A stretch of 64,000 nt of DNA from Vicinamibacterales bacterium (GTDB lineage: Bacteria; Acidobacteriota; Vicinamibacteria; Vicinamibacterales; UBA2999): positions 150,827 through 214,826 of the forward strand of contig JAWKHU010000034.1 in assembly GCA_041394685.1 (NCBI GenBank), given 5' to 3'. Positions 7,016-48,412 of the stretch are shown one piece after another (position 1 is the first letter of the stretch; each line of letters begins with the position of its first letter). The position numbers and the translations under genes were made by a program. The notes below the pieces were generated by a model, which saw nothing but the letters and a program-made list of their open reading frames with translations, was not told the DNA's origin and did no database searches.

Positions 7016-7109
7016 CCATCTGCGCCATCTGCGCCATCCGCGGCCCCTGCGCTATCTGCGCCATCTGCGGCCCCTGCGTCATCTGCGGGGCCGTGATACC
7101 ATCTCTGCG
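7016..7109. repeat. 9-bp tandem microsatellite (CCATCTGCG-like, about 8 full units plus partial units) upstream of nuoA
   Basis: ccatctgcg ccatctgcg ccatccgcg gcccctgcg ctatctgcg ccatctgcg gcccctgcg tcatctgcg, read directly. Confidence 0.9.
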
Positions 7110-19777: not shown

Positions 19778-19858
19778 TCACGAAGGACACGAAGGGGAAG
19801 CACGAAGGGCACGAAGGGAAGGCACGAAGAGCACGAAGGGGCACGGAGGCACGAAGAG
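19778..19858 (+). repeat. CACGAAGGG-type 9-nt microsatellite starting at the first base after the nuoN stop
   Basis: 'tcacgaaggacacgaaggggaagcacgaagggcacgaagggaaggcacgaagagcacgaaggggcacggaggcacgaagagg'. Confidence 0.9.
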
Positions 19859-19937
19859 GTGCCCGGGGGACGAGGCGGTCTGTGAGCAGACCCGATGCCG
19901 TGTCCCGCGGAAGCCCAGAGTCTTCCTCCTGCTGACG

Positions 19938-20119
19938 CGTTCTTCGTGCTCCTCGGGGTCTCCGCACTCTACGTGACGCCGTTCCCCATGCCTTCCGCGC
20001 TCTACGCGCTCTTCGTGCCCTCCGCGTTCTCCATGCCCTTCGTGCTCTCCGTGTTCTCTGTGTTCTCCGTGTCCTCCGTGTCCTTCGTGTTTTCCGTCCC
20101 CTTCGTGCCCTTCGTGCCT
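19938..20119 (+). repeat. Inverted-orientation (CCCTTCGTG-type) microsatellite array ending 2 nt before the symporter ATG
   Basis: '...ctcttcgtgccctccgcgttctccatgcccttcgtgctctccgtgttctctgtgttctccgtgtcctccgtgtccttcgtgttttccgtccccttcgtgcccttcgtgcc'. Confidence 0.9.
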
Positions 20120-20121
20120 CG

Positions 20122-21416
20122 ATGACGCTCACGATTCGGGTCCTGGCCGGGCTGGTCGCTGGCTTCCTGCTGGGCCTCGCGCTTGCGGGGCCGGCGGCTC
20201 CGGCGTCCACGCTCGTGGTCGGCATCCTGGCGCCAGTCGGCGAAATCTTCGTCAACCTCATTCGCATGACCGTGATTCCGCTCCTGGCCTCGATGCTGGT
20301 GGCCGGCATTGGCGGCATGCCGCGCGCGGGCGGGCTGGGGCGGACCGGGCTGCGCGGGCTGGCGATCTCGGTCGCGCTGCTGACGATGGCGGCGGCGGTG
20401 AGCGTGGTGGTGGCGCAGCCGGTGCTGGCGCGGCTCGACATCGATCCGTCGGCGGCGCAGGCGCTCCGCGCCCAGAGCGGCGTGACGGGTGCGGACGCTG
20501 CGGCGGCGGCCCCAACCCTCGGGAGCTGGCTCGTGGAACTGGTCCCGGTGAACGTGGTGCAGGCGGCCGCGGACGGAGCGGTGCTGCCCGTGATTCTGTT
20601 CTCGGTGCTGTTCGGGTGGTCGCTCAACCGGATCGAGCCTGGACGGCACGAGGCCGTGCTGCGGGTGGTGGAGGGCGTTGCCGAGACCATGCAGCGCCTC
20701 GTGGTCGGCGTCTGGCGCTGGCGCCGATCGGCGTCTTCGCGCTGGCGGTGCCTCTGGCCGCCCGCCTCGGCTGGCGGCTGCCGGCGCCGTGCTGGCCTAC
20801 GTCGGCCTCGTGGTGGTGCTCACCGTTATCGCGATCGCCGCGGTGCTCTACCCGCTCGGCGTGCTCGTCGGTCGCATGCGCCCGGCCGCCTTCGTCGCCT
20901 ACTGCGCGCCGGCGCGAGGCCATCGCCTTCGCCTCCCGGTCGTCGCTGGCCTCGCTGCCGGCCATGGTGGCCAGCGCCGAGCGCGCGGGCCTGCCGCCGA
21001 GCGCCTCACGCGTCGTGATGCCGTTCGCCATGGCGGTGTTCCACTTCGGCGCCGCCATAGCCCAGGCGGTCGGCGTGGTGTTCCTCGCACGCCTGTTCGG
21101 CGTCCAGCTGTCGCCGTCTCAACTCGCGTCCATCGTGGCGGCGGTGGTTCTCGCCTCGTATGCCGTGCCCGGCATTCCGGGCGGCAGCATCATCGGGATG
21201 GTGCCGGTGCTGATGGCGGCCGGCCTGCCGGTGGACGGCGTCGGCATCCTGCTGGCGGTGGACACCATCCCGGACATGTTCCGGACGACGGCGAACATCA
21301 CGGGGGCGATGACCCTGACGGCGATCCTGGGGCACGGAGAACACGGAGAACACGAAGGGCACGAAGGGCACGGAGGGCACGAAGGGCACGCAGGGCACGC
21401 AGGGCACGAAGGGTAG
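20122..21416 (+). CDS. Dicarboxylate/amino acid:cation symporter (DAACS/GltP-DctA family); frameshifts at about 20700-20920; His/Glu/Gly tail encoded by the microsatellite
   Basis: 'VGEIFVNLIRMTVIPLLASMLVAGI', 'SSLASLPAMVASAERAGLP', 'YAVPGIPGGSIIGM' and 'LAVDTIPDMFRTTANITGAMT'. The tail is 'GHGEHGEHEGHEGHGGHEGHAGHAGHEG'. Confidence 0.85.
21332..21413 (+). repeat. CACGAAGGG-type 9-nt microsatellite (7 GGG tracts spaced by 6 nt) forming the symporter 3' end
   Basis: 'gggcacgaagggcacggagggcacgaagggcacgcagggcacgcagggcacgaaggg'. Confidence 0.9.
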
Positions 21417-21432
21417 GAGGCTATCCTCACTT

Positions 21433-21497
21433 CCAAGCCCCAAGCCCCAAGCCCCAAGCCCCAAGCCCCAAGCCCCAAGCCCCAGGTCCCAGGTCCC
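21433..21497. repeat. 7-nt microsatellite CCAAGCC x7 followed by CCAGGTC x2, abutting the intI stop codon
   Basis: Read directly. The minus strand is (CTTGGGG)n. Confidence 0.9.
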
Positions 21498-22465
21498 TTA
21501 CAACCGATCTGCCGGGCTCCGCACCCCGAGGCCGCCGCGGCTCAGCACGTGGGTATAGATCATCGTCGTGCTGACGTCGGCGTGGCCCAGCAGTTCCTGA
21601 ACGGTGCGGATGTCGTATCCATCCTCGAGCAGGTGTGTGGCGAACGAATGGCGCAGCGTGTGACAGCTCGCACGCTTGGTGATGCCGCAGGCCCTTACGG
21701 CCGCGGTGACGGCGCGCTGGATGACGGTTTCGTGGAGATGGAAGCGGCTCGGCGGGCCCCAGCGCGGGTCCCGGCAGATGCGGGCAGCCGGGAAGACGAA
21801 TTGCCACGGCCACGACGAAGCGGCGTTGGGATACTTGGCGGTCAGCGCATCGGGAAGCACCACGCGCCCGAATCCTTGCGCGAGGTCGGCGTCGTGCAGA
21901 CGACGGGTCTCGTCGAGCTGTCGTCGCAGGGCCGTCACGACCGACGCGGGAAGCATCGTGACGCGGTCCTTGCGGCCCTTCCCCTGGCGCACGATGAGTT
22001 CCAGCCGCTCCAGGTCCACGTCCTTGACGCGCAACGACAGGCCTTCGAGTAGACGCAGGCCGCTGCCGTAGAGCAGCGATGCCACAGGTGCGAGACCCCC
22101 TCCAGGTGCTCGAGGAGCCGGCGGACCTCTGGCGGGTCAGCACGACGGGCAGGCGCGGGGGTGTGCGCACGCGCGTGAGTGCCGGCAGGTCTCCCAGTGG
22201 ACGGCCGAGGACGTGTTCGTAGAGGAACACGAGTGCGCACAGCGCCTGGTTCTGTGTGGACGCGCTGACCTGCCCCCGCACGGCCAGCGCGGACAGAAAG
22301 GCCGACACCTCGGCGCCACCGAGGCGGTCGGGGTGCTGCAGCCGGTGGAACACGACAAAGCGACGTGTCCAGTGCGCTGTAGGCCTCCTCGGTCCGGGGG
22401 CTGAAGTGCCGAACGCGACAGGCCCGGCGCACCCGGTCGAGCAGTCGTGGCCGTTCCCCCGACAT
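21498..22465 (-). CDS. intI: Integron integrase IntI (tyrosine recombinase); at least 2 frame breaks in the N-terminal half (about 22090-22380)
   Basis: ORF 21498..22085(-) has '[16 protein letters not shown]' and the IntI-specific insertion '[50 protein letters not shown]'. It also has '[40 protein letters not shown]...GVRSPADRL', close to the IntI1 pattern. The N-terminus is '[29 protein letters not shown]'. Confidence 0.92.
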
Positions 22466-22639
22466 CGCGGCCGGACCGCCCCATCCGCCTTCTTGTCGCC
22501 GTCATCCTGGTCCATGGCGAACCAGCGAGCCAGTTCCGTGCCAGCGCCGCTTTCAGCCGGCGCGGCCCTGCAGGAGCATCAGATGCCAAGAACGTTTCGG
22601 AATATGCCACCTGACCGTCTTCGGCCAACGCATCACTTG

Positions 22640-22822
22640 CAGAACCCGTTAGCCTGACAGGAGAGTCCGCGTTGACCCTGGCGCTGAACAGAACGGTCTC
22701 ATACGGGCGTCGAAGAGGTTTGCGGGAGTGTCCGCCCTTGAGGAAGAAGAAGGCTGACCGCCGATGCGGCGGGATCGGTTCTGGATGGGGTAGGCTACAG
22801 GCGGTCTAGTAATCTGTTAGCC
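22640..22822 (+). other. attI region. The predicted crossover core is GTTAGCC at 22816..22822; a second GTTAGCC at 22647..22653 may be an IntI-binding direct repeat.
   Basis: 'taatctGTTAGCCagacaaga' matches the 'GTTAGCCagaca' junctions seen after attC2 and attC6. The first cassette ATG is 10 nt downstream. Confidence 0.6.
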
Positions 22823-22831
22823 AGACAAGAC

Positions 22832-23176
22832 ATGGTGAAAGCTGAACTGAGACGAATTCACAGCCCAGACTTGTCGGAACCCGATCTGCCCCCCGATCCG
22901 ACAGATTGTGTGGTTCTGGTTCAGGCCCTCATCGGCCCGAAGGACGGCAGCGGCGAGGAGTCATTTGACTTTGAGGTCGTCGCACCATTGAGCGCCAGCA
23001 GTCCCGGTCGTGGTCGAGTGGTGGTTGAACGCTTCGACTGGCCCAGTGTCCGGACTCACATCACAGAACGCCTCGCTTCCGCGCAGGGCCACTCTTGGTC
23101 CGACGTGGCTCGGCAGCTCGACCAACACTGGTGTTGGGAGTTCGCGGACTACCGGGAGTTCGGAGCCAACGGTTGA
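22832..23176 (+). CDS. Cassette 1: Imm8-like immunity protein (114 aa)
   Basis: 'AELRRIHSPDLSEPDLPPDPTDCVVLVQALIGPKDGSGEESFDFEVV...WSDVARQLDQHWCWEFADY' matches my memory of the Imm8 (PF15586) pattern (HSPD..., IGP..G.EGEESFD..V, WEFEDY). Confidence 0.55.
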   Translation: MVKAELRRIHSPDLSEPDLPPDPTDCVVLVQALIGPKDGSGEESFDFEVVAPLSASSPGRGRVVVERFDWPSVRTHITERLASAQGHSWSDVARQLDQHWCWEFADYREFGANG

Positions 23177-23213
23177 TCTCGCTGTCCTGCCTAGCGAGCA
23201 TCCGGGCACAGCT

Positions 23214-23302
23214 GGCTAGCCAGCGCATGCAGCCGACGGCGGTCAGGCGCTGTGGCATCATGCGGGCATCCGACCGCCGCGGCTGATGCGCGGGCGTTAG
23301 GC
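23214..23302 (+). repeat. attC 1 (89 bp)
   Basis: R'' GGCTAGC ... 'cagcgcatgcagccgacggcgg' ... 'ccgccgcggctgatgcgcg' ... R' GTTAGGC. Confidence 0.85.
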
Positions 23303-23313
23303 AGACCCAATCA

Positions 23314-23739
23314 ATGAGCCCGTCGACGGCTGAAGAGCGGCTACGTGCTGGGTTGCGGCATTGTTCAGAGATGTCGAAGGCATTGTCTGAGCTTCAAGAG
23401 CGAGTCGACGATGCGTCGTCTCTTCGTCCGGCCATCCGCGCAGTTGGCGCCATCCTTGGTTGGTTCGATCTCGAGTTGTTTCGGCCCATCGAGCGTGAGC
23501 ATCCAGAACTCGTCGGGTGGTCGACTGCGGACCGCGACTGGTCGCCGGAGTCCGCGCCGGCCCCAACCCTGACGGACGCGTTCGATGCGTGTGAGCGGGC
23601 CGTGGCCAACAGCCTTGGTGTGGCGAAGTTCGTCGTAGGCGAGGCGGGCCTGTCTCTGCGGGCGCGTGCTGAACTCGAGCGCCTCGTTGCACAGTGCCAG
23701 AGTGCAGGCCGTGCTGCTCGTCGCAATGGGGCTGCCTAA
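23314..23739 (+). CDS. Cassette 2: hypothetical helical protein (141 aa)
   Basis: Intact ORF. Its stop TAA is supplied by the attC R'' core (GCCTAAC). Confidence 0.55.
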   Translation: MSPSTAEERLRAGLRHCSEMSKALSELQERVDDASSLRPAIRAVGAILGWFDLELFRPIEREHPELVGWSTADRDWSPESAPAPTLTDAFDACERAVANSLGVAKFVVGEAGLSLRARAELERLVAQCQSAGRAARRNGAA

Positions 23740-23820
23740 CCAGCGCATGCAGCCGGCGGCGGTCAGCACCGTGGCATCATTGGATATCGACGCGCCGCGG
23801 CTGATGCGCGGTCGTTAGCC
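23734..23820 (+). repeat. attC 2 (87 bp)
   Basis: R'' GCCTAAC ... R' GTTAGCC. The arms are nearly identical to attC1, attC4 and attC5. Confidence 0.9.
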
Positions 23821-23839
23821 AGACAGACTGAGACGCAGA

Positions 23840-24421
23840 ATGAATGTCCGCCAGGCACCAGCAGTGTCAATAGAGTCCGTTAGGGAAGTGGCGCGCATTC
23901 TGTGGCCCCGGTTCATCGAGTTCGACGGATTGATGTGGGTCGATCTACCCGGGTGTAGGCCGAGACGTGGTGCGGCGACACCGAACCCGACTACAGGCAT
24001 GGACCGAACCGGCATCGAAGCCTTCGCCAGCCATATCCATCTCTTGGATCTGTTTGCGCACGACCGACGCGTGTTTGACAGACGAACGCTGCTTTACGAC
24101 CGGAGCCATCGTCACTTCCGTACGGCTGAACAGTTGGGTCAGACGGTGGCGCAGACGTGGTGCGCGCGGCTTCGGAGTGACTATCCTGGCCAACACTTCC
24201 GCGTCTACTACACCCGCGACGACGATCCGGCCGTTCGTTTTCACCGCGTGTACGCTGGCGAGCCAGTGTGGATGGAGGATCCCACGCCTGCCCCATCGAC
24301 TCGAGTCGTGCGCGCCGTCTGGGATACGCATCGGCTGGCTAACCAGCGCTTGCAGCCGGCGGCGTCGAACAACCGTGCCACTCAGACAGGCAAGCCGCCG
24401 CGGCTGAAGCGCAGTCGTTAG
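23840..24421 (+). CDS. Cassette 3: hypothetical protein (193 aa as given; the last ~25 aa read through the attC)
   Basis: Intact ORF filling the cassette. No family recognised. Confidence 0.5.
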   Translation: MNVRQAPAVSIESVREVARILWPRFIEFDGLMWVDLPGCRPRRGAATPNPTTGMDRTGIEAFASHIHLLDLFAHDRRVFDRRTLLYDRSHRHFRTAEQLGQTVAQTWCARLRSDYPGQHFRVYYTRDDDPAVRFHRVYAGEPVWMEDPTPAPSTRVVRAVWDTHRLANQRLQPAASNNRATQTGKPPRLKRSR

Positions 24422-24423
24422 CC
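24337..24423 (+). repeat. attC 3 (87 bp)
   Basis: R'' GGCTAAC ... R' GTTAGCC. Confidence 0.85.
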
Positions 24424-24435
24424 GGACAAACCGGA

Positions 24436-25167
24436 ATGCCGAACAAGCGCCTCGAACGTTGGTACCTCGAGCAGCTGAAGAGTGAGCTTCCGGACTTTCC
24501 GACCGGCGAGGTGGAACCCGGAGAGTCGCCAGACTTCGTGGTCCGAGAACCCGAAGGCTCGGTCGGAATTGAGATCACCGTCTTTCACCGGGCACCTGCC
24601 CACGGAGAACGGCCCCACCAAGAGCTTCAGAGTCTCAAAGATGGCGTCGTCGACCTCGCGCGCCGAATGCACCACGAGAGCGGTGGGCCGGCACTATACG
24701 TGACGGTCTTCTTCCACGAGCCCATCGCCTTCAACAAGCGGAGCGCTCAGTCAGTAGCCGCTGCAATCGCAGGGGCGGTATCACAGACAGCCGTACCATC
24801 ATCAATCGGCGATGGCTCTCGCAGCGTTGCGTGGGACCATCTGCCGGATGGCGTTGTGGCGATCACGATCTATGCCAGTGTAGACGGCGCCGATCGGCTC
24901 TGGTCCGCCGACGCCGGCGGCTGGGTGGCCCCAGTCACGGCGAACGAGATCGACGTGGTGCTGCGCGGAAAGCAGTCAATGTTGACGATCGCCAGGACGA
25001 AGTGCCGACGTGTCTGGCTCGTGGTCGTAAACGACGTCTTTTCGAGAGCAGCACCCGTGGAGCTCAGCGACGAAGCGAGGCATCATCTCTACCCGTACGG
25101 GTTCAATCGGGTGTTCTGGCTCGATGCGCATGCTCCCGCGATCACGGAACTTAAGCGAGCCGGCTAA
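24436..25167 (+). CDS. Cassette 4: hypothetical protein (243 aa) with a possible PD-(D/E)xK nuclease-like N-terminal core
   Basis: 'GESPDFVVREPEGSVGIEITVF' (D ... E-x-T in beta-strand context). The stop TAA lies in the attC R'' core. Confidence 0.5.
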   Translation: MPNKRLERWYLEQLKSELPDFPTGEVEPGESPDFVVREPEGSVGIEITVFHRAPAHGERPHQELQSLKDGVVDLARRMHHESGGPALYVTVFFHEPIAFNKRSAQSVAAAIAGAVSQTAVPSSIGDGSRSVAWDHLPDGVVAITIYASVDGADRLWSADAGGWVAPVTANEIDVVLRGKQSMLTIARTKCRRVWLVVVNDVFSRAAPVELSDEARHHLYPYGFNRVFWLDAHAPAITELKRAG

Positions 25168-25250
25168 CCAGCGGTTGCAGCCGACGGCGGTTGGGCACTG
25201 TGGCATCATGCGGGGCAGCAACCGCCGCGGCTGAACCGCGGTCGTTAGAC
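25162..25250 (+). repeat. attC 4 (89 bp)
   Basis: R'' GGCTAAC ... R' GTTAGAC. Confidence 0.9.
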
Positions 25251-25257
25251 GGACTCC

Positions 25258-25828
25258 ATGTCACGCGATCGCGAACACGTCGTGTGTTGCCTGTGTGGCT
25301 CTGCGTGTGAGATGCGTCGGCCGTCGTGCTCAGCGTATCAAGCAGGCCCGCGGACGAAGGCTCCCAGCATCTCTGGGTGCATTCAACGTGTCTGAGAAAC
25401 CACTTGGCAATCGACGCACCCCTCCTTTCGGAACTGAAAGACAATCACGACGTCTCACCACTTGGGCCGGGGCTGATCGAGCGTCTCGCGGCGTGCGTGC
25501 GCGCCTTGTCCGAGGCCTCTGAGGCCTGTCGACAAGCCCAAGAGCGTCCACGATACGAGGCACGCCTTGCCGGCGCTGCTCGAATGTTCGAGGCGCTCCG
25601 GCGCGACTCGACGTGTGCGAGCCTGATTCCGCTACTCGAGACAGAACAGCGAGCACTTGGTTGGGGTGCTTCAGTGAAGCTGCAGGCGCGAACGTCGAAC
25701 GGGCGTTCAGCGACTTCGCTGCGGCGGCGAGGCGACTCGCCGTCTCACCAGCGCATGCAGCCGACGGCGGTCGGGCGTTGTGGCATCATGCGGGCAGTCG
25801 ACCGCCGCGGCTGATGCGCGGTCGTTAG
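25258..25828 (+). CDS. Cassette 5: hypothetical protein, possibly with an N-terminal Cys/His zinc-finger; needs frame corrections (about 25320 and about 25660)
   Basis: ATG 25258 gives 'MSRDREHVVCCLCGSACEMRRPS', joining ORF 25326.. '...SQHLWVHSTCLRNHL' (C-x2-C ... H-x2-C). The tail is uncertain. Confidence 0.35.
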
Positions 25829-25830
25829 CC
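25742..25830 (+). repeat. attC 5 (89 bp; degenerate R'')
   Basis: R'' GTCTCAC ... 'cagcgcatgcagccgacggcgg' ... R' GTTAGCC. Confidence 0.8.
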
Positions 25831-25885
25831 AGAGCTGAGTCAGGAATTCAATCCTTTCGGCTGGCGGGTCGACGGTTCCGAACTC

Positions 25886-26233
25886 TTGGCCCGGCCCGCG
25901 GTGCGTGCCAGTCAGACCCTCGACGACCTCGCGGTCCTTGTGCTGCTCGCGATCTGCAGTTGCATCTGCGTCCCGGCCTCGCTCCGGATCGTGGCGGACG
26001 CTACGGCTCCCGGCGACGACCGGGGCGTCTCGTGCATGTGGGGACGTGGCCCGGTCAGTTGGGGCGCGTTCGGCGGCGCGCCTTGGGCGCGGCGGCCGTG
26101 GAGCCGGCGTGAGCGGTCCGGGCCGGCCATCACCCCGGTGCGCCTCGCAGACGGCGCGCCATGGTCCGGGCTCATCGACCGGGGGTGCGTGTTCCGGACA
26201 GCCGGTCGGCGATCGCCGCGTCCGGCTGGCTAA
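25886..26233 (+). CDS. Cassette 6: uncertain ORF (115 aa)
   Basis: This is the only frame whose stop is the TAA of the attC R'' core, as in cassettes 2, 4, 8 and 11b. The N-terminal part 'TLDDLAVLVLLAICSCICV' is TM-like, but the rest is compositionally poor and frame errors are likely. Confidence 0.25.
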   Translation: MARPAVRASQTLDDLAVLVLLAICSCICVPASLRIVADATAPGDDRGVSCMWGRGPVSWGAFGGAPWARRPWSRRERSGPAITPVRLADGAPWSGLIDRGCVFRTAGRRSPRPAG

Positions 26234-26382
26234 CCAGACGCTGCAGCTGACCATCGGCACCGCCATCATCAAGCCCGGTGTCATCATCGTGGTTCCGCGG
26301 GCAGTCGGCGGGCGTATTATCGGAGGCGCTTGCTCCCAGCGTGCTCTTGGTGCCGCTGGCAGCTGAGCGCTGGTCGTTAGCC
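26228..26382 (+). repeat. attC 6 (155 bp, long variable loop)
   Basis: R'' GGCTAAC 'cagacgctgcagctg' ... 'cagctgagcgctggtc' R' GTTAGCC. Confidence 0.8.
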
Positions 26383-26422
26383 AGACAGAGAATCGGCGTG
26401 GCGCCAACAACGAGGTCGTGAG

Positions 26423-26953
26423 TTGAAGCACCGGGAGTGGCACGCGGAGGTGAAGCGCCTATTGAAGATGTCGGCCGAGAAGCCTGAGGCCGCGTCGCGC
26501 CGCTTGCGCCGATTGGCTGGTGCCGTAGAGCGTGAAATCAAGCACGGTCTGCATGACTGGCACGTTACGCAGACTCTCCACCTGGCAAGTCTCGCCGAAG
26601 CCGCAATGGGAAATCACACAGCCGCGGCCGTCACCCTGGCGCGGGTGGCCGAGCACCAGAAGAGCTCCTTGGACTATGAGGTCAGGGCGTACGTGTCGGC
26701 CTGTGCTGCGGCGGCCCTTGAGTACGCGAAGGCTGGCGACATGGAAAAGGCTGTGACCATGGTGCGGGAAGCTAGGCCATGGGGAAGGCGACTTCAACCG
26801 CCCGACCATCTCTTGAAGTCTGCATCGAGACTGATCCGAGGCTGGCATAGTGGCGACCAAGGGCTGGCCAACCAGCGCGTGAAGCCGACGGCGGCCGGGC
26901 AGCGGGACAGGGCCCGGGCAGCGAGGCGCCGCGGCTTACGCGCAAGTCGTTAG
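26423..26953 (+). CDS. Cassette 7: hypothetical all-helical (TPR-like) protein; TTG start preceded by GAGG
   Basis: ORF 26423..26953. Its C-terminal ~28 aa read through the attC. Confidence 0.45.
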   Translation: MKHREWHAEVKRLLKMSAEKPEAASRRLRRLAGAVEREIKHGLHDWHVTQTLHLASLAEAAMGNHTAAAVTLARVAEHQKSSLDYEVRAYVSACAAAALEYAKAGDMEKAVTMVREARPWGRRLQPPDHLLKSASRLIRGWHSGDQGLANQRVKPTAAGQRDRARAARRRGLRASR

Positions 26954-26955
26954 GC
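26866..26955 (+). repeat. attC 7 (90 bp)
   Basis: R'' GGCCAAC ... R' GTTAGGC. Confidence 0.8.
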
Positions 26956-26978
26956 AGACTCATTAGCGCGAGCGCATC

Positions 26979-27311
26979 ATGGATCAGCCGGACATCCGGG
27001 ATGCCCGTGCCAAAGCGGCCAAGATCGCAGCGGCGGTCTTGGCAAGGCAGCTCAGTCCAGTACTGGGCGCCGTCGACTTGAACAGGCTGCGCTTTTCGGT
27101 GGACGTGCCGACCGACGACCCAGACTTTGAAACGTTCATCCTTATCGACTCGGAGTGCGATGGCCTGCCAATCGGGTCGGTTCGGCAGTACTGGTCTCCC
27201 GAGGCGCTTACCCGAAAAGAACCTGAGGTCGCGCATGCCGAGCGTTGGGCAATGGACGCTGGCGCCGAAGCCTTCAGGAATGTGCTGGAGCGCTTTGGGC
27301 CCGCTGCCTAA
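26979..27311 (+). CDS. Cassette 8: hypothetical protein (110 aa)
   Basis: Intact ORF with its stop TAA in the attC R'' core. Confidence 0.5.
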   Translation: MDQPDIRDARAKAAKIAAAVLARQLSPVLGAVDLNRLRFSVDVPTDDPDFETFILIDSECDGLPIGSVRQYWSPEALTRKEPEVAHAERWAMDAGAEAFRNVLERFGPAA

Positions 27312-27412
27312 CAAGCCGCTGCACCTGACGGCAACGGGGCCCGCTCGCGCGTGCCCCTGCGCTCGGTGGTGTCGTGACTCGCGCTGCCGCAGGTGAGCGG
27401 CAGCCGTTAGGC
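27306..27412 (+). repeat. attC 8 (107 bp)
   Basis: R'' GCCTAAC 'aagccgctgcacctgacgg' ... 'ccgcaggtgagcggcagcc' R' GTTAGGC. Confidence 0.85.
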
Positions 27413-27439
27413 CGGATCAAGATTAGTCGGGTCAATCGA

Positions 27440-27796
27440 ATGAAGTGGATAGAGCGGGTGTTCGGACGCCGCAGGCGCATCGTTGATATGACGGCCGAAG
27501 AAGTTGCCGCGACCATCGAGAACTTTATCGAAGGCCGTGGCGGACCTTGGGAATGGGACGACTTTCTGTCCTTCCAGATCACGGACCCGCAACTCGAGTC
27601 TATTCGGGAACGCTGCAACGGACTGTCGGAAGAGTGTCCCCCTGGTATGGGTGGCGGCTATTGTGGGCTCGAAGGCGTTGACGTCATGCGCGTGTTCGTT
27701 CGGGAACTCAGGGAACGTGCGGCCAAACAAACCGCTGTACCTGACGGCACCGGGTCGCGCTCGGTGCAATCCGTGCCGCGCGCATGCCGCAGGTGA
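27440..27796 (+). CDS. Cassette 9: hypothetical small protein
   Basis: ATG 27440 gives 'MKWIERVF...EEVAATIENFIEGRGGPWEWDDFLSFQITDPQLESIRERC...'. The tail reads into the attC. Confidence 0.5.
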   Translation: MKWIERVFGRRRRIVDMTAEEVAATIENFIEGRGGPWEWDDFLSFQITDPQLESIRERCNGLSEECPPGMGGGYCGLEGVDVMRVFVRELRERAAKQTAVPDGTGSRSVQSVPRACRR

Positions 27797-27813
27797 GCGG
27801 CACTCCGTTGGGC
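27722..27813 (+). repeat. attC 9 (92 bp; same arm subtype as attC 8)
   Basis: R'' GCCAAAC 'aaaccgctgtacctgacgg' ... 'ccgcaggtgagcggcactcc' R' GTTGGGC. Confidence 0.85.
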
Positions 27814-27831
27814 TGCGAACTGGAGCAAGCC

Positions 27832-28362
27832 ATGATGAAGATCCCTAGGATGCGAATACCGGTGTTCGTCTCGGCTCCCAGTCCGGACAATCTCAGTCCC
27901 TCTCAAGAGCAGAGCGCGGCCATCATCCAGAAGCTTGTAACGCGGTACAAACTGGAATGGCGCGCGTTGGGACGAAGCGACTATCCCAATAGCCTTCCTC
28001 TGAAGGAGGTCCTGAGGATGGTCAAGCATTGTTCGGGAGGGATCATTCTTGGCTTCGAGCAGTTTCGAGCGCCCAACGGGAGTTCAAACCGGGCAGCCCG
28101 AACGCAAAGACTGCAACGTCCGCAGTGTCCTTCCCGACTCCGTGGAATCAGCTCGAAGCAGGCATCCTTTTCAGTAGCGGTTTGCCGATGGTGATCTTCA
28201 GAGAGGCCGGTATCGCAGGTTGGGTGTTTGATGTGGGGACGTCAGAGGTGTTCATCCACCAGATGCCGAACTCTGCGATGGCACCTCAAGCCTTGGACGA
28301 TCTGGATTCCCGTCTTCCAGAACTGGGTGGCTCGTGTCCGGACTCACTACTATGGCGAGTGA
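27832..28362 (+). CDS. Cassette 10 gene A: TIR-like / nucleoside 2-deoxyribosyltransferase-like protein (about 175 aa after two frame corrections, near 28085 and 28305)
   Basis: 'MMKIPRMRIPVFVSAPSPDNLSPSQ...VKHCSGGIILGFEQF' is followed, after a shift, by 'FPTPWNQLEAGILFSSGLPMVIFREAG' (N-x3-E-x-G motif). A further shift gives '...WIPVFQNWVARVRTHYYGE*'. Confidence 0.45.
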
Positions 28363-28651
28363 CTACTGTCCCCAACCGCTTTCCACCGACCACATCCAGT
28401 TGGATGACGACCTGTTGAAGCTTGTCGAGCGACTGGCAGAACACGCGCACGACATCTGGGCACTGCAGAGAATCAACGATGGATGGCGCTTCGGGCCGGA
28501 GAGGTGCGACAACACGAAGCGTCACCCCTGTTTTGGTCCCGCACTCGAAACTGCCCGAATCAGAGAAGTCATGCGATCGCAATGCGGTTGTTGGCACGAT
28601 CCGGGCAGCACTCGCTTTGGGTTTTGTAGGTACGAAGTGTTGCTCCGATGA
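28352..28651 (+). CDS. Cassette 10 gene B: RyR-domain protein (frameshift near 28530; 3' end uncertain, 28651 or 28727)
   Basis: ATG 28352 overlaps the gene A stop (ATGGCGAGTGA). 'LVERLAEHAHDIWALQRINDGWRFGPERCDNTKRHPC' is followed, in the shifted frame, by 'LVPHSKLPESEKSCDRNAVVGTIRAALALGF'. Together these match the RyR (PF02026) consensus as I remember it. Confidence 0.6.
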   Translation: MASDYCPQPLSTDHIQLDDDLLKLVERLAEHAHDIWALQRINDGWRFGPERCDNTKRHPCFGPALETARIREVMRSQCGCWHDPGSTRFGFCRYEVLLR

Positions 28652-28653
28652 AG

Positions 28654-28718
28654 CAGCCCAACAGGGCGCTGCAGCCGACGGCTGCGCGGCGCGGCTGAGC
28701 GCTGACGTCGGTCGTTCG
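28654..28718 (+). repeat. attC 10 (65 bp, short)
   Basis: R'' GCCCAAC 'agggcgctgcagccgacgg' ... 'gcggctgagcgc...gtcggtc' R' GTTCGAC. Confidence 0.75.
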
Positions 28719-28769
28719 ACGGACTAATCGACCACACTGAAGATCAGCTAAGGCAACTGAGGAACTGAC

Positions 28770-29245
28770 GTGAGGCCTCGCTATCTTTGCCAGGACTGCC
28801 TGTTCCTGGGTGCCCCGGCGAAGCGTCTGGTGGGGTCTCCTGCCCTGGAATTGGTCCTCTGGCTCGTCTGGTGGTTCCGGGCGCGGCGTATGCGTGGTGG
28901 CGTCGTCGGGGAGTGATCTTGCTGTGCGACAGGTGTGGCGGTCCGCGCGTCGTGCCGGAGGTCAGCCCCGAGCAGAGATCGACGATTGCCGCGCACCCCA
29001 GACTGCCAGACGAAGTAGTGGGGAAGGCCACGGTATTCTGGCGCGTCTTCTGGGCCATGCCGGTGGCGAGCGGCGTTGGTGTCGTAGCGTTGTTCGTTCT
29101 GTCGGCGTTGGTTCCAACGGTTCGGGCCCAGCCCTGGTTCGGCTGGCTCGTTTACGGTGTCGCGGCGCCAATCGTTGGGCACGGGTTGTGGTTGGCGGCG
29201 CACTTGGTGTCCTCGGTGGTTAGAAGGCTCCGTGCGCGCCTCTGA
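28770..29245 (+). CDS. Cassette 11 gene a: membrane protein with a split zinc-ribbon (CxxC - TM - CxxC) and two further TM helices; GTG start; frameshift near 28870
   Basis: 'VRPRYLCQDCLFLGAPAKRLVGSPALELVLWLVWW' is followed, after a shift, by 'VPGAAYAWWRRRGVILLCDRCGGPRVVP...', then the hydrophobic 'VFWAMPVASGVGVVALFVLSALV' and 'FGWLVYGVAAPIVGHGLWLAAHLV'. Confidence 0.5.
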
Positions 29246-29400
29246 TGGGGCCGTCGAATCCGGCGTTGGAACCGATGTCCTTGGCCGCCGGCAGGTGCTC
29301 GCGCAGCGGTAGAATCGTGACGCCGCGCGGCGCGGCTCAACGCCAACCGGAGGCGGACATGTGAGCGAGACTGCAACTGGCTGAGTTCCAGCGCTCTGGC

Positions 29401-29775
29401 ATGACGCGTGATGGCGAGCAGATGTGGAAGCGCATAGTCGCAGCTGGGATCAGCGTGGCCGTCAGCACTGGGTTCTTGGTCTTGGGTGGGGCGGTTGCCA
29501 TGGACCCGGAATCGTGGTTCGTGCTGACCTTCGGCGTCGCACTACTGGCGTACTCATGTGGTTCTCTCGCAGTCCTGGGAGCGGCGTGGTATGCACCGGG
29601 CGGGTGGAGTCGGTGGGCAGCCTACCTAGCCTCGGGAGTCTCGGTGCTCTGGTCTCTCGGCTCATTCGATCACGGATTCATGAGCGGGCTAGAGGTTGTC
29701 TCGGCACTCAGATGCTCCGGTGCCTCCGCCCTGAACTGGGCATCCATACGATGGATCGAGCGAACCACCGCCTAA
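29401..29775 (+). CDS. Cassette 11 gene b: small 4-TM membrane protein (124 aa)
   Basis: Four hydrophobic segments. The stop TAA lies in the attC R'' core. Confidence 0.55.
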   Translation: MTRDGEQMWKRIVAAGISVAVSTGFLVLGGAVAMDPESWFVLTFGVALLAYSCGSLAVLGAAWYAPGGWSRWAAYLASGVSVLWSLGSFDHGFMSGLEVVSALRCSGASALNWASIRWIERTTA

Positions 29776-29844
29776 CAAGCGATTGCAGCCGACGGAGGCC
29801 CGGTAGATCCTGAGCGCGCCGCGGCTGAACCGCGGTCGTTGGAC
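29770..29844 (+). repeat. attC 11 (75 bp)
   Basis: R'' GCCTAAC 'aagcgattgcagccgacgg' ... 'ccgcggctgaaccgcggtc' R' GTTGGAC. Confidence 0.85.
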
Positions 29845-29852
29845 GGCTTGCG

Positions 29853-30315
29853 ATGACCGAGTGTGAGTTCGCGAAACGAATCGATGGGCGCTTTCCGTAC
29901 GAAGACCTGGAGCAACGGGCTCTCCTCGCCAGGTTGAGCTGCGCCATTTCACCCAATGCGGCCTTCATGCTTATTCACGAACTCGCCAGGCCTGGTCGTG
30001 GAGTGGTGGCGCCCCTGCAGAATCAATCGCAGTCTTGGACGCTGTAGCCGCGAGACTCGAACATCCACTAGCGATGTCTGTCTTCGCGCCTTGCGAGAAA
30101 AATGATCCAGGGGAGAGACCGCGACGGTGGACGAAGCGCTCGACCTGATGGGCGCCGTAGCATCCTATCGCGGACAGCATGCCGCGCTGGCTATCGCGGC
30201 TATGTCCTGCGATGATCCGGATGGTCGCGCAACGGACGCGGACGAACGCATCTCGCGCAAGCTGGGACGCCGCCTAGCACCCGCTTGCAGGCGACGGCGC
30301 GCGGTGGCATCCTGA
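29853..30315 (+). CDS. Cassette 12: hypothetical protein, split over three frames
   Basis: 'MTECEFAKRIDGRFPYEDLEQRALLARLSCAISPNAAFMLIHELARPG', then '...AESIAVLDAVAARLEHPLAMSVFAPCEKNDPGE', then '...VDEALDLMGAVASYRGQHAALAIAAMSCDDPDGRATDADERISRKLG'. Confidence 0.35.
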
Positions 30316-30343
30316 GCGCAGCGGCTGAACCGCGTCCTTTGGC
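30272..30343 (+). repeat. attC 12 (72 bp; mutated R' core)
   Basis: R'' GCCTAGC 'acccgcttgcaggcgacgg' ... 'gcggctgaaccgcgtc' then CTTTGGC in place of GTTGGAC. Confidence 0.6.
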
Positions 30344-30359
30344 GGACCGATCACGCGCC

Positions 30360-30877
30360 ATGGCATCATCCGACCCGTTGCAGATCGATCGCGCGCGGCT
30401 ACACAGCCGCGATCGCCATACTCCTGGGTCTCTTCGCGTGCGGCGCCCCTCCGGATGCGGAATACGAGTATCTGATCGCCCAGTTCGGTCGTGCCGAGTC
30501 CGTGCGGCCCACGTCACACGGTCCGGCGCGGGGCGAATGGAGGGTCGACGTCGCCGACCTGTTCTGGAACAAACCCGATAACCCTGATGTTGGTCGTCAG
30601 GGTGGCAGGACAGGTAGGACGCGAGGTCACGGTCCGCTACTCAGACGAAGCGGAGCCGCGCCAGTTGTCGGAACGCATCGAAGGCAGGACGCCAATCGAG
30701 GTCCGTTCGGGCCAATCGATTCTCTACGTCTATTCGAAGGACGGGCGGTCGGGAACCCACCACCTCCTGGCGTATGATCTGGAGAGGACGGTGCGCACGA
30801 ATCGGCAGGTCGAACCATCAGCCGTCTCGCTGAAGAATCCAGAAGACGGCGGGAGAGTTCAGCGGAGTAGCCAATGA
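30360..30877 (+). CDS. Cassette 13 gene a: predicted lipoprotein (frameshifts near 30400 and 30585)
   Basis: ATG 30360, then, after a shift, 'TAAIAILLGLFACGAPPDAEYEYLIAQFGRAESV...' (lipobox LFAC). ORF 30491..30877 supplies the tail '...VTVRYSDEAEPRQLSERIEGRTPIEVRSGQSILYVYSKDG'. Confidence 0.45.
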
Positions 30878-31212
30878 ACCGACGCAGAACCATCCGGATC
30901 GTATCGGCCGTCATCGTCGGAGCGGCGCTGTGGGTCGTGAGCGGGACCGTCTCAGTCAGACATCGTACTGTCACCGGAACCGTCACGGAGTTCCGCCCAG
31001 GCGACTGGCTCGCGATCAGGAACGATCAGTTCATGCTGTTTCCCCTCGCGCTGCATGGCGAGACACGATACGAGAGCCAGGACGGCCGTGCCATCGCAGC
31101 CCCTTCGACCGTCGAGGCTGGCGCCCTCGCGACCGTGTGGTATCGCGATCTCGGTGAACGACGACCGCGGGTGGGCCGAGTGCGTCTGGGCGATGAGGGG
31201 CGCGCACCCTGA
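30874..31212 (+). CDS. Cassette 13 gene b: N-terminally membrane-anchored small protein (112 aa)
   Basis: ATGA overlap with gene a. 'RRTIRIVSAVIVGAALWVVSG' is a TM anchor, followed by a beta-rich domain. Confidence 0.55.
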   Translation: MNRRRTIRIVSAVIVGAALWVVSGTVSVRHRTVTGTVTEFRPGDWLAIRNDQFMLFPLALHGETRYESQDGRAIAAPSTVEAGALATVWYRDLGERRPRVGRVRLGDEGRAP

Positions 31213-31244
31213 TGGGGCGAGCGGCTGCAGCGCGGTCGTTGGAA
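31153..31244 (+). repeat. attC 13 (92 bp, divergent), the last recognisable attC
   Basis: The left arm 'GGTGAACgacgaccgcgggtgggccg' pairs with the right arm 'cggctgcagcgcggtcGTTGGAA'. Confidence 0.6.
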
Positions 31245-31261
31245 GGCACGTCGAACATCAG

Positions 31262-31939
31262 ATGACAGGATGCATGGTGACAATCCGACGGACTTCCCGT
31301 AAAACCCCAACTCGGCGACGTCATGCCCTGCAGTTTCTCGTTGTGCTGCTGCGGTCCAACCCATTGATCTGGCGGCGCATTCACGTGCCAGGACGACTAT
31401 TCCTTCTGGGACTTGCACGTCGCAATCCAGGACGCCATGGGTTGGCAGGACTGCCATCTGCACGAGTTTCGGGTCGTCCGCGGCGCAGCCAGTGAACAGC
31501 AAGCCATTGGCATTCCGGACGACGACTTCCCCGATGAGCGGCCGCTTCTCCCAGGCTGGCAGGTTCCGATTCACGACTTCTTCAACTGGGACACGCTCTC
31601 TTCATCGCCGCCTGCCCGATACGTACATGATTTCGGCGACGAGTGGCAGGCACCTGGTCACGCTCGAGGACATTTCTCCGCGCGGCTCCGCCAAGCTGCC
31701 CCGCTGCACGGCGGGCGAGCGAGCGTGTCCTCCGGAGGATTGTGGCGGTGTGGACGGGTTCCAGTGCCTTCATCGAGGCCGTGTCGAACCCCGAGCATCC
31801 CGACCACAGAACAATGTGCGACTGGCGCGGTGGCGAATACGATCCTGAACTGTTCGACCCCAGCCGCGTGGTGTCAACGACCCGAAGAAGCGATGGAAAC
31901 GAGCATTCGGGCGATAGTCCGTTCAACAACGATCGATGA
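31262..31939 (+). CDS. pRiA4b ORF-3-like (PF07929-type) protein; at least 3 frame breaks. It is either the terminal cassette without an intact attC or the first non-integron gene.
   Basis: 'LQFLVVLLRSNPLIWRRIHVPG', then after a shift 'DYSFWDLHVAIQDAMGWQDCHLHEFRV...YVHDFGDEWQ', then 'HLVTLEDI...PRCTAGERACPPEDCGGVDGFQ', then 'FIEAVSNPEHPDH...YDPELFDP'. Confidence 0.7.
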
Positions 31940-32148
31940 CGGGACGGGAGAGATGGCCGTGCCCGTATCCACATTGTCGAGCCCTCCCTTGAACAGAGCG
32001 AGACCATTCCCGCGCAAACAGCCCTGAGCGGATCGTGACGGACTATATTCTCCTCGTGCACGACGACGGAGCCCGGGATGGGGAGTCGTCGAGATTCGGG
32101 AGCTGCCGCTTGGTTGATCCCGGACAGGGTGTCAACCAGGAGACGTCA

Positions 32149-32527
32149 ATGGCTCGTCACATCATCTTCACGCCGAACGCCCCCACGCCCCCGCCCTCCT
32201 ACAGCCAGGCGGTCAAGGCGGGGGCTTGATCTTCGTCTCGGGAACGGCCCCGGTCGATCCGGCAACCGGTGCCATGGCGGGCACGACGATTCAGGAGCAG
32301 ACGCGGCAGTGCCTGGTCAACATCCAGGCCATCGTGGAGGCCGCGGGCAGCTCGCTGGACAGGCTGGTCAGCGCAACCGTCATCCTGGCCGACGAGGACG
32401 ACTTTGCGGGCATGAACGAGGAGTGGCTGCGGTGGTTTCCGTCCGACCCGCCCGCCAGGCAGGGCGCGAAGCTGCCCGCGCGAATCCCGGCCTGAAGGTG
32501 TCCATCGCAGCCGTCGCGGAAGCCTGA
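32149..32527 (+). CDS. ridA: RidA/YjgF family reactive-intermediate deaminase (two frame breaks, near 32225 and 32490)
   Basis: 'MARHIIFTPNAPTPPPSYSQAVKAG', then 'IFVSGTAPVDPATGAMAGTTIQEQTRQCLVNIQAIVEAAGSSLDRLVSATVIL', then 'GLKVSIAAVAEA*'. Confidence 0.8.
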
Positions 32528-32573
32528 CGCCGCGATAGGCGCTACAATTGGCGTCCTCCCCAGGAGCACCGCC

Positions 32574-32765
32574 ATGCGCCGAACCATGACCGCGTTGTCC
32601 GTTGCCGGCGCCGGGTTGTTCGCCAGCGTCGCCGGCCAGGCGATCTGGCGTCAATCGCCGGACGAGATCTGGGCCGGCTGCGCCGTCGTCGGCGTCCTGC
32701 TCGGCGCGGCCATCGGGTTCGAGTCGAGCATTTCGCGTCTGCTGGCCCGTGTGATGCACACCTGA
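32574..32765 (+). CDS. Hypothetical small 2-TM membrane protein (63 aa)
   Basis: Intact ORF with two hydrophobic segments. Confidence 0.4.
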   Translation: MRRTMTALSVAGAGLFASVAGQAIWRQSPDEIWAGCAVVGVLLGAAIGFESSISRLLARVMHT

Positions 32766-32778
32766 TTCCTCTGAAAAG

Positions 32779-33360
32779 ATGCCCACGACCTCACGCGTCA
32801 CCATCCACATGGTGGCCAGCCTTGACGGGTTCATCGCGCGCAAGGACGGGCGCGTGGACTGGCTCGAAACCGCCGACGAGTTCCCGGGCGGCGTGACGCT
32901 CTCTCCGGAAACCATCAAGGGCTACCTGGACTCCATCGACTGCTACGTGATGGGCTCGCGCACGTATGAGACGGCGCTGGACTTCGACGCCAGGGGGCTC
33001 GGCTGGGTGTACGGCGACAAGCCCACGTTCGTGCTCACCAGCCGCCAGTTGCCGAAGCCGCGTGCGTCGGTCGAGTTCCATGCGGGAGACCTCACCGCCT
33101 TCTTCGACGAGCGGCTGCGGCCCACCTACGGCAGCATCTGGGTCGTGGGTGGTGGTGCGCTGGCCGGTGCGTGCCTTCGGCTTGCACTGGCCGACGAGGT
33201 GCGCTTCTCGATCGTGCCCATCGTGATCGGTGATGGCATCCCGTTCTTCAGCGGGCTCGACCGGGACGTCCCTCTGCACCTGGCCGAGGTCACGGCCTAT
33301 CGCAGCGGCATGGTGGCCCTCCGCCACGAGGTCCGCAAGGGCACCGCGGCCTCCGGCTGA
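32779..33360 (+). CDS. Dihydrofolate reductase family protein (RibD C-terminal domain type)
   Basis: 'RVTIHMVASLDGFIARKDGRVDWL...CYVMGSRTYE...IWVVGGGALAGACLRLALADEVRFSIVPIVIGDGIPFF'. Confidence 0.8.
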   Translation: MPTTSRVTIHMVASLDGFIARKDGRVDWLETADEFPGGVTLSPETIKGYLDSIDCYVMGSRTYETALDFDARGLGWVYGDKPTFVLTSRQLPKPRASVEFHAGDLTAFFDERLRPTYGSIWVVGGGALAGACLRLALADEVRFSIVPIVIGDGIPFFSGLDRDVPLHLAEVTAYRSGMVALRHEVRKGTAASG

Positions 33361-36870: not shown

Positions 36871-36888
36871 GCGCCCGGTCCCGTATTT

Positions 36889-36968
36889 CTGCCTTGAGCC
36901 TTTTGCCTTGAGCCTTTTGCCTTGAGCCTTTTGCCTTTTGCCTTGTGCCTCCTGCCTTCTGCCTTCTG
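36889..36968. repeat. 7/14-nt microsatellite (TGCCTTGAGCCTTT x3, then TGCCTTN units) downstream of the DHFR-family gene
   Basis: Read directly. It is the reverse-complement type of the AAGGCA repeat at 48350..48412. Confidence 0.9.
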
Positions 36969-37008
36969 AATTCCGCGTTCCGCCTTCCCCCTTGATACCG
37001 TGGTCCGC

Positions 37009-48349: not shown

Positions 48350-48412
48350 AAGGTAACAGGCGCAAGGCACAAGGCAAAAGGCACAAGGCAAAAAAGCAAG
48401 TCGCGAAGACAA
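48350..48412. repeat. 7-nt microsatellite (AAGGCAN units) immediately after the purH stop
   Basis: 'acaggcgcaaggcacaaggcaaaaggcacaaggcaaaaaagcaag'. Confidence 0.85.

Follow-up and report, generated by a model that had tools for sequence, protein, structure and literature searches.

What is the run of small genes that lies beside a tyrosine recombinase gene, past the end of the complex I (nuo) operon, in a genome of the Vicinamibacterales? The question concerns a stretch of 64,000 nucleotides (positions 150,827 to 214,826 of contig JAWKHU010000034.1, assembly GCA_041394685.1), which is referred to as the window and whose own coordinates are used throughout. An earlier note had described the locus as a complete sedentary chromosomal integron, with an integrase gene (intI), an attI site, 13 attC sites and about 14 cassettes, nearly all of them encoding ORFans. 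Our analysis bears out the core of that description. Judging from sequence comparisons, and with a probability of about 0.9, we read the locus as a sedentary chromosomal integron of approximately 15 cassettes, located beside the 3' end of the nuo operon of an uncultured member of the Vicinamibacterales. The words "complete" and "ORFans", and the novelty that was claimed for the locus, were not supported.

The integrase gene is the following:

21498-22465, minus strand: intI, integron integrase gene; in-frame only after correction of three 1-nt insertions or deletions (indels); corrected product, 322 amino acids.

In the deposited sequence, the reading frame of intI is not uninterrupted. The whole gene starts at an ATG at 22465 and is spread over three reading frames, owing to one inserted base (about 22375) and two deleted ones (about 22129 and about 22085), which were placed by DNA alignment against two relatives. 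The peptides quoted in the earlier note were located within the open reading frame (ORF) 21498-22085 on the minus strand, which encodes the C-terminal 195 amino acids and, uncorrected, passed the TIGR02249 model alone (292 bits, cut-off 265). Residues 1-30 (from the ATG at 22465), about 31-111, and about 112-126 are encoded in frames other than that of this ORF. The corrected IntI scored 438.5 bits on TIGR02249, covering profile positions 1-315, and failed the XerC (146.7 bits, cut-off 335) and XerD (139.1 bits, cut-off 330) models. Its identity is 54% with IntI1 and 70-78% with IntI proteins from soil metagenomes and Vicinamibacterales, and its catalytic residues (R138, K163, H269, R272, H295, and Y304) all fall in columns that are invariant with IntI1. 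VchIntIA (PDB 2A3V), to our knowledge the sole integron integrase with a solved structure, matched the corrected protein over its full length (E 2e-87), while XerA, XerC, and XerD reached 108 bits or less. The IntI-specific segment (KYPNA...WPWQ, continuing as ...WPWQFVFP...RFHLHE) aligned without gaps to the insertion of both IntI1 and VchIntIA; a non-integron tyrosine recombinase has a gap where this segment stands. We therefore conclude from these alignments, in agreement with what had been proposed for the recombinase and its extra segment, that the minus-strand recombinase is a member of the IntI subfamily, and not a XerC/XerD protein or a phage integrase. The locus has an intI gene, an attI-like site, and an attC array, but with the integrase frame broken three times its completeness is unproven.

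To search for attC sites, two covariance models were used. Model R1 was built from 15 attC sites of class 1 integrons on seven clinical plasmids (those of aadA1, aadA2, aadA5, aacA4, cmlA5, dfrA12, gcuF, blaIMP, aac(6')-IIa, blaOXA-1, catB3, arr-3, aac(3)-Ib, qacF, and dfrA14), in which R-box/L-box pairing was verified (83.7% of cells paired). Model R2 draws on 30 attC sites which R1 found beside IntI homologues on other contigs, and contains no window sequence. The array consists of 15 units of 401-907 bp, and every candidate ORF is on the plus strand (scores below are those of R1 and R2; D2, D3, D4, and D7 are repeat families):

22817-23296, plus strand: cassette 1; ORF 22832-23176, Imm8 immunity-protein family (PF15586, 55.6 bits); attC1 23214-23302 (R1 23.6 bits, R2 52.2 bits).
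23297-23814, plus strand: cassette 2; ORF 23314-23739, no family; attC2 23734-23820.
23815-24417, plus strand: cassette 3; ORF 23840-24421, uncharacterised family with 145 cluster representatives; attC3 24337-24423.
24418-25244, plus strand: cassette 4; ORF 24436-25167, identical to MEZ5284331.1 (hypothetical protein, Vicinamibacterales metagenome-assembled genome, MAG); attC4 25162-25250.
25245-25824, plus strand: cassette 5; ORF about 25326-25814; attC5 25742-25830, R'' variant GTCTCAC (R2 48.3 bits, R1 11.5 bits).
25825-26376, plus strand: cassette 6; coding frame uncertain (25886-26233 or 25905-26366); long attC6 26228-26382 (155 nt).
26377-26949, plus strand: cassette 7; ORF 26423-26953; attC7 26866-26955.
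26950-27406, plus strand: cassette 8; ORF 26979-27311; attC8 27306-27412, the best R1 match (32.1 bits; R2 56.6 bits); D7.
27407-27807, plus strand: cassette 9; ORF 27440-27796; attC9 27722-27813.
27808-28714, plus strand: cassette 10; RyR-domain protein in frameshifted pieces 27784-28194, 28334-28651, and 28422-28727; short attC10 28656-28720.
28715-29348, plus strand: cassette 11; ORF 28787-29245, no curated family; degenerate attC11 29253-29354 (R2 18.2 bits, E 0.054; R1 9.2 bits).
29349-29838, plus strand: cassette 12; ORF 29401-29775, no curated family; attC12 29770-29844.
29839-30337, plus strand: cassette 13; short ORFs 29853-30047 and 30127-30315; degenerate attC13 30272-30343 (R2 17.8 bits, E 0.067); D2, D3.
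30338-31238, plus strand: cassette-sized unit 14; ORFs 30491-30877 and 30874-31212; attC remnant 31221-31244, right arm only (GTTGGAA); D3, D4.
31239-32045, plus strand: cassette-sized unit 15; PRiA4_ORF3-like gene over four frames; doubtful attC right-arm remnant at about 32023-32045, judged by eye.

The R1 search covered the full 64 kb on both strands, with filters off. The top 10 matches in the window were all on the plus strand, between 23214 and 29844, at proposed sites (attC1 to attC4, attC6 to attC10, and attC12, with the coordinates listed above), with E-values from 1.5e-5 to 0.13. Only the match at attC10 (28656-28713) stops short, the true R' box GTTCGAC being placed at 28714-28720. 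Weak matches were obtained at two further proposed sites (25742-25830 and 29259-29354). Outside the integron region, neither strand of the 64 kb gave an R1 match with E < 2; the sole other such match, at 22623-22654, is in the interval between intI and attI. With R2, 11 sites in the window scored 35-61 bits and the two degenerate ones, attC11 and attC13, about 18 bits. The total is 13 attC sites and the two distal right-arm remnants, of which that of unit 14 fits the right-arm pattern with two mismatches and had no left arm that could be found. The earlier count of 13 is thus borne out, with the reservation that two of them are degenerate and have lost the GTT core of R'. As a control, R2 was run on 547 kb of nuoN-centred loci of similar composition from 31 related Acidobacteriota MAGs; these 31 loci had no intI match, and none gave an attC match (0 matches at E <= 1e-3). 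Half-site consensus patterns occurred seven and eight times in the window, all on the plus strand and all in the array, with 0.01 expected by chance.

One stray R2 match in the window (3820-3889, minus strand, 22 bits) corresponds to a GTCGGACG...CGTCCGAC palindrome in coding DNA, without AAC/GTT cores, and was judged a false positive. A naive search for RYYYAAC...GTTRRRY combined with hairpin energy yielded 15 candidates on each strand, the majority of them away from the array, while most of the true sites escaped it. Since such a search is useless in DNA of 70% G+C, covariance models were used instead. There was no Rfam match in the window at gathering thresholds, and a scan of the window for tRNA and tmRNA genes found none.

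Unconstrained DNA folding of the bottom strand of each site yielded long hairpins with R and L boxes and extrahelical bases, as had been expected. In 11 of the 13 sites, one base was bulged at 16 nt and another at 23 nt from the 3' end, and these are the positions of the bulged G and T of attC-aadA1. The base at position 16 was C wherever that bulge showed (10 of 13 folds), and the top strand had G in all 12 sites counted in a fixed register; in attC-cmlA5 and attC-blaIMP, position 16 is bulged too, and the base there is also C. The bulge at position 23 was T or C. In a fixed pairing register counted from both ends, which was preferred because a MAFFT alignment misplaced the right arms of long and short sites, 21-24 of 25 positions were paired in 8 of 12 sites, and several stem columns carried compensatory changes (for example CG/GC and AT/TA/CG). 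The R' box of 11 sites was GTTAGCC, GTTAGGC, GTTAGAC, GTTGGGC, GTTCGAC, or GTTGGAC, and these 11 sites look recombination-competent. Sites attC1, attC4, and attC5 are 82-89% identical over 95 nt and represent a dominant homogeneous family, while attC8 and attC9 form a second subtype. Apart from the attC sites, the region has no direct repeats, and hence no duplicated cassette. The bases that follow the R' core are also conserved (GTTAGCC-AGAC or -GGAC, from 23296 to 31244, attI included), and a CAG past the R' core can pair with a CTG ahead of R''. Much of the spacer sequence that separates the R from the L boxes is paired as well, so that both stems extend further than those of class 1 attC sites.

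The array begins at a candidate recombination site:

22760-22822, plus strand: attI-like region; crossover core GTTAGCC at 22816-22822, with the crossover point between G and TT; imperfect inverted partner (GGTCTAGTAA) just upstream.

The GTTAGCC core at 22816 lies 350 bp from the start of intI and is followed by cassettes divergent from that gene, as described earlier. In the attI region of two related loci, L001 and L002, the motif TGGGGTA...GTCTA.TA...GTTAGCC.GAC is kept, and similarity is lost past the core, as expected of a junction between attI and a first cassette. Its position relative to intI and the conservation of the motif suggest that 22760-22822 functions as attI. Another GTTAGCC, at 22648, was weighed as a possible core instead and rejected, the stretch around it being absent from the aligned region of L001 and L002. 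A short attC-like match surrounds this second GTTAGCC (22623-22654; R1 12 bits, E 1.1) and may be a remnant site or a chance occurrence. A promoter search of the intI-attI interval revealed weak -35-like hexamers at most.

The small ORFs all run in one direction and are each followed by an attC site, in keeping with the initial description. In several of them, the stop codon is inside the R'' box GCCTAAC, and otherwise it is in or near R''. Pfam names just three of the cassette proteins: Imm8 (cassette 1), RyR (cassette 10), and PRiA4_ORF3 (unit 15). The last two are frameshifted: in cassette 10, positions 1-59 and 44-87 of the PF02026 profile matched in two different frames, and in unit 15, positions 2-30, 31-100, 100-146, and 137-172 of PF07929 matched in four different ORFs. 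Searches of ten other cassette ORFs against Pfam, NCBIfam, and PADLOC revealed no defence system or named family. The claim that almost every cassette encodes an ORFan did not hold for the two cassette proteins that were searched, those of cassettes 3 and 4, which have 145 and 38 uncharacterised homologues, respectively, counted as cluster representatives. Homologues of the cassette 4 protein (64% and 90% identical) are found in other arrays, with attC sites directly on both sides and with different neighbours, which is indirect evidence that cassette 4 moves as a unit; one homologue is annotated from a Nitrospiraceae MAG.

The composition of the region sets it apart. The G+C content is 0.63 between 21.4 and 32.1 kb, versus 0.70-0.71 in the flanks, and a codon-position model keyed to the high third-position G+C (GC3) of the host marked all of 22357-32291 as non-host-like. 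By GC3, the main single-ORF cassette genes (0.65-0.74) fall below host genes (0.88-0.97), with intI in between at 0.83.

The location of the integron was compared with related loci. On two metagenomic contigs, L001 and L003, whose nuo proteins are approximately 88-91% identical to those of the window, intI adjoins nuoN, and in a third, L040, it is 5.6 kb from nuoN; other NuoN loci had no intI match. Beyond its array, L001 carries a RibD_C gene 68% identical to that at 32779-33360 of the window. When the called cassette proteins of L001 and L003 were compared with the window, no match was found; the cassette content of the locus therefore varies, as a comparison of related genomes had been proposed to reveal. 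What is new here is the linkage of intI to nuoN in three related contigs, and that no cassette is common to the window and the two readable arrays. The platform at nuoN appears to be fixed in a small clade while its cassette content turns over. A fixed chromosomal locus in relatives and the lack of a transposon or plasmid backbone, as seen in four contigs, are the marks of a sedentary integron, and so is a large array of similar attC sites (here 13 sites and two remnants), though by the classical rule of thumb a large array has more than 20 cassettes and that of the window is smaller.

More distant IntI homologues were found in other genomic contexts. In L015 (10001-19100) and L016 (10001-19200), an attC array lies downstream of a 215-amino-acid intI fragment and in the same orientation, an arrangement inverted relative to the window; both arrays are interspersed with IS481-like (rve) transposases, and L015 contains an IS110-type transposase too. 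In L011 (7535-9601) and L012 (1761-3827), an IS91-like Y2 transposase and its own tyrosine recombinase are located directly upstream of an intact intI, so that the transposase is between intI and the cassette array. This intI is next to gyrA and is 79% identical to that of the window over its C-terminal 195 amino acids.

How such a locus would operate can be proposed from established integron biology. IntI would bind the folded bottom strand of an attC hairpin, recognising the R and L boxes and the two extrahelical bases. Recombination of the hairpin with double-stranded attI would insert a cassette between G and TT of the GTTAGCC at 22816, and recombination between two attC sites would excise one as a circle. 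The promoterless plus-strand cassettes would be transcribed from a Pc promoter in the intI-attI interval, the proximal ones being expressed best. The platform beside nuoN would be inherited vertically in a small clade, with complete replacement of cassettes between relatives. Recombination activity, strand choice, expression from Pc, and vertical inheritance are all inferred here. Given two sites without GTT and two right-arm remnants at the distal end, the last cassettes are probably fixed in place.

Several observations weigh against the reading of the locus as a sedentary integron of this kind. The R' boxes of attC11 (CGGAGGC) and attC13 (CTTTGGC) have lost the GTT core, which makes recombination of these sites unlikely, and the right-arm remnants of units 14 and 15 are degenerate. 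A scan of 21900-23000 for the sigma-70 consensus gave no match, by rules which may not fit the host phylum, and a LexA box sought in the intI-attI interval was not found there. Of the 80 NuoN loci, the majority lack an intI within a distance of 10 kb, the closest GTDB relatives (85% identity) included, and vertical inheritance of the platform is argued from four contigs. The intI gene of L003 (9707-10651) has an in-frame stop at codon 44 (GPD*VAGF) and its gene call is split in two. The density of indels in intI is above that in the nuo operon (ca. 3 per kb, versus ca. 1 per kb in 20-32.5 kb and at least ca. 0.3 per kb in the nuo genes), which makes true pseudogenisation possible.

The last two points, together with the three indels within 0.97 kb of intI, the frameshifts in cassettes 10 and 15, and the degenerate distal sites, agree with the rival explanation that survives best, a decaying, inactive integron with intI as a true pseudogene and the array a frozen relic, effectively clustered attC sites next to a defunct integrase, as in many strains of Xanthomonas. 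In addition, intI of the sedentary integrons of Xanthomonas is often inactivated, by frameshifts or stops (bioRxiv 10.1101/2025.06.18.660453). We consider decay unlikely, though it deserves serious attention. Indels of the same 1-nt type, not in homopolymers, occur in nuoL (15450), nuoM (16835 and 17701), nuoN (19739), the symporter gene between nuoN and intI (20700-20910), the RyR (28000-28560) and PRiA4 (31400-31700) cassette genes, and a RidA-like gene (about 32225). This census was limited to cases backed by homologues or split Pfam profiles, GC3-based Viterbi/ORF segmentation being too noisy to give exact counts in genes that lack homologues. Because the nuo genes are highly conserved and show no other damage, and L001 has intact orthologues of nuoL, nuoM, and nuoN (products ca. 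88-91% identical), we take most of the indels to be errors of the deposited assembly, which appears indel-rich, with errors clustered in 20-32.5 kb. The intI fragments, indels aside, are stop-free and keep all catalytic residues, the C-terminal part is 83-85% identical to intact homologues, and eleven attC sites are well preserved. We judge that assembly errors account for the intI indels more probably than true inactivation does, and that a sedentary integron remains the better reading of the locus.

A mobile integron, recently inserted on a transposon or a plasmid, is a further alternative, and to weigh it the flanking genes were considered:

18339-19739, plus strand: nuoN, which ends the complex I operon; left neighbour of the integron, conserved, with a product that shares 91% identity with the L001 NuoN and 90% with the L003 NuoN.
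20122-21416, plus strand: sodium:dicarboxylate symporter gene, frameshifted, with 9-bp tandem repeats on either side; not part of the integron.
32148-33360, plus strand: right flank, its codon use like that of the host; frameshifted RidA-like gene, one small ORF, and the RibD_C gene 32779-33360.

In favour of recent mobility, the composition of the cassettes is unlike that of the host, insertion sequence (IS) elements are beside intI in some homologous integrons (L011 and L013), and the symporter gene was not found in any of the related loci and is absent between nuoN and intI in relatives. No transposase, resolvase, or plasmid gene was found, however, in the window flanks of the integron, the linkage of intI with nuoN recurs in three other contigs, a length of 221 kb is reported for the source contig, and an array of ca. 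15 cassettes with a dominant homogeneous attC family carries no resistance genes. Recent insertion of a mobile integron is thus very improbable. The remaining possibility, to which we give next to no credence and which is refuted as far as computation goes, is that the repeats belong to a generic palindromic family, similar to repetitive extragenic palindromes (REP) or miniature inverted-repeat transposable elements (MITE), or are terminators, beside an unrelated XerC/D-like or phage integrase: high-GC DNA is rich in stable hairpins and the naive search was equally productive outside the array, but models trained on attC sites of other organisms single out the sites of the array, the bulges are placed as in canonical attC sites, the repeats have a single orientation, one per small ORF, and begin at an attI-like core next to the integrase gene, the recombinase satisfies the IntI model but not the XerC/D cut-offs, and no Rfam family matches the window.

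The host is, by the relationships of its proteins, a member of the Vicinamibacterales, Acidobacteriota: the closest NuoN proteins among species-representative genomes, at 85% identity, are all from Vicinamibacterales or Acidobacteriota MAGs. The placement of the integron in an Acidobacteria-like genome, next to the nuo operon and a symporter gene, was therefore correct, with nuoN and the symporter gene to the left of intI. In the symporter gene, positions 1-176 and 247-384 of the PF00375 profile are in different frames. Intergenic tandem arrays with 9-bp units (CACGAAGGG / CACGGAGGG and their complements) and with 7-bp units (CCAAGCC, TTCTGCC, and AGGCACA) are located at 7016-7087, 19779-20118, 21330-21491, 36887-36987, 48350-48393, and 57394-57448, and bracket the symporter gene. 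A similar array is present in the locus of a related MAG (L018, 955-1025).

Compared with class 1 integrons, the locus has an integrase 54% identical to IntI1, attC sites that a model trained on class 1 sites alone could find, the same layout of R and L boxes and bulges, and, as in attC-cmlA5 and attC-blaIMP, C as the first bulged base. Unlike them, it is not carried by a Tn402-like transposon or plasmid, lacks both a 3' conserved segment and resistance genes, contains approximately 15 cassettes rather than a few, and has largely paired R-L spacers. With the superintegron of Vibrio cholerae, it shares full-length integrase homology that includes the extra segment, and a sedentary array of similar, repeated attC sites. 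The V. cholerae superintegron has about 180 cassettes; the array of the window is smaller, no toxin-antitoxin cassettes were detected in it, and the codon use of its cassettes is unlike that of the host.

The closest parallel in organisation is provided by Xanthomonas, where a chromosomal integron occupies a fixed housekeeping locus (intI downstream of ilvD), with lineage-variable arrays and cassettes mostly of unknown function (bioRxiv 10.1101/2025.06.18.660453). A clade-fixed platform, variable arrays, mostly uncharacterised cassettes, and a disrupted intI are common to both, while the phylum, the anchor (nuoN instead of ilvD), the attC subtype, and the size of the sample (four contigs versus hundreds of genomes) differ. 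The statement that integrons are poorly characterised in this lineage overstated the novelty: chromosomal integrons from Acidobacteria were already on record, and Ghaly et al. 2021 (PMC8352920) used them to build an attC covariance model specific to the taxon. The present locus resembles those described there in phylum, in its chromosomal attC array, and perhaps in attC sequence and structure typical of the taxon; the linkage to nuoN and the present Vicinamibacterales clade are not described in the parts of that paper that were consulted. The mechanism of integrons, their parts, and their occurrence in the phylum were thus known, and the present element is an ordinary one that changes nothing of this. 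IntegronFinder and similar standard tools should flag it.

The locus is a well-resolved example of a chromosomal integron for the Vicinamibacterales, an abundant and essentially uncultured lineage of soil and sludge. In view of the many 1-nt indels in the source sequence, the activity of the integrase and the products of the cassettes are to be read with caution at the gene level. Of the new facts, the most useful is that a platform anchored at nuoN and confined to one clade carries an entirely different set of cassettes in the two readable relatives, and the presence of this anchor in several contigs makes the locus useful for studies of turnover and of the environmental cassette pool. A broader scenario, which we put forward tentatively and regard as doubtful in its entirety, is that the platform was gained once beside nuoN in a subclade of the Vicinamibacterales and inherited vertically, that its cassettes derive from a distinct pool common to soil phyla, and that C as the first extrahelical base of all the attC sites reflects lineage-specific co-adaptation of IntI and attC. 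The composition behind this idea is a GC3 of about 0.7 in cassettes versus about 0.9 in the host, and C, in place of the common G, as the first extrahelical base. If single acquisition, a shared pool, and co-adaptation were true, the locus would be a tractable natural system in which to measure how cassettes turn over, and how they flow across phyla, in an abundant uncultured soil lineage.

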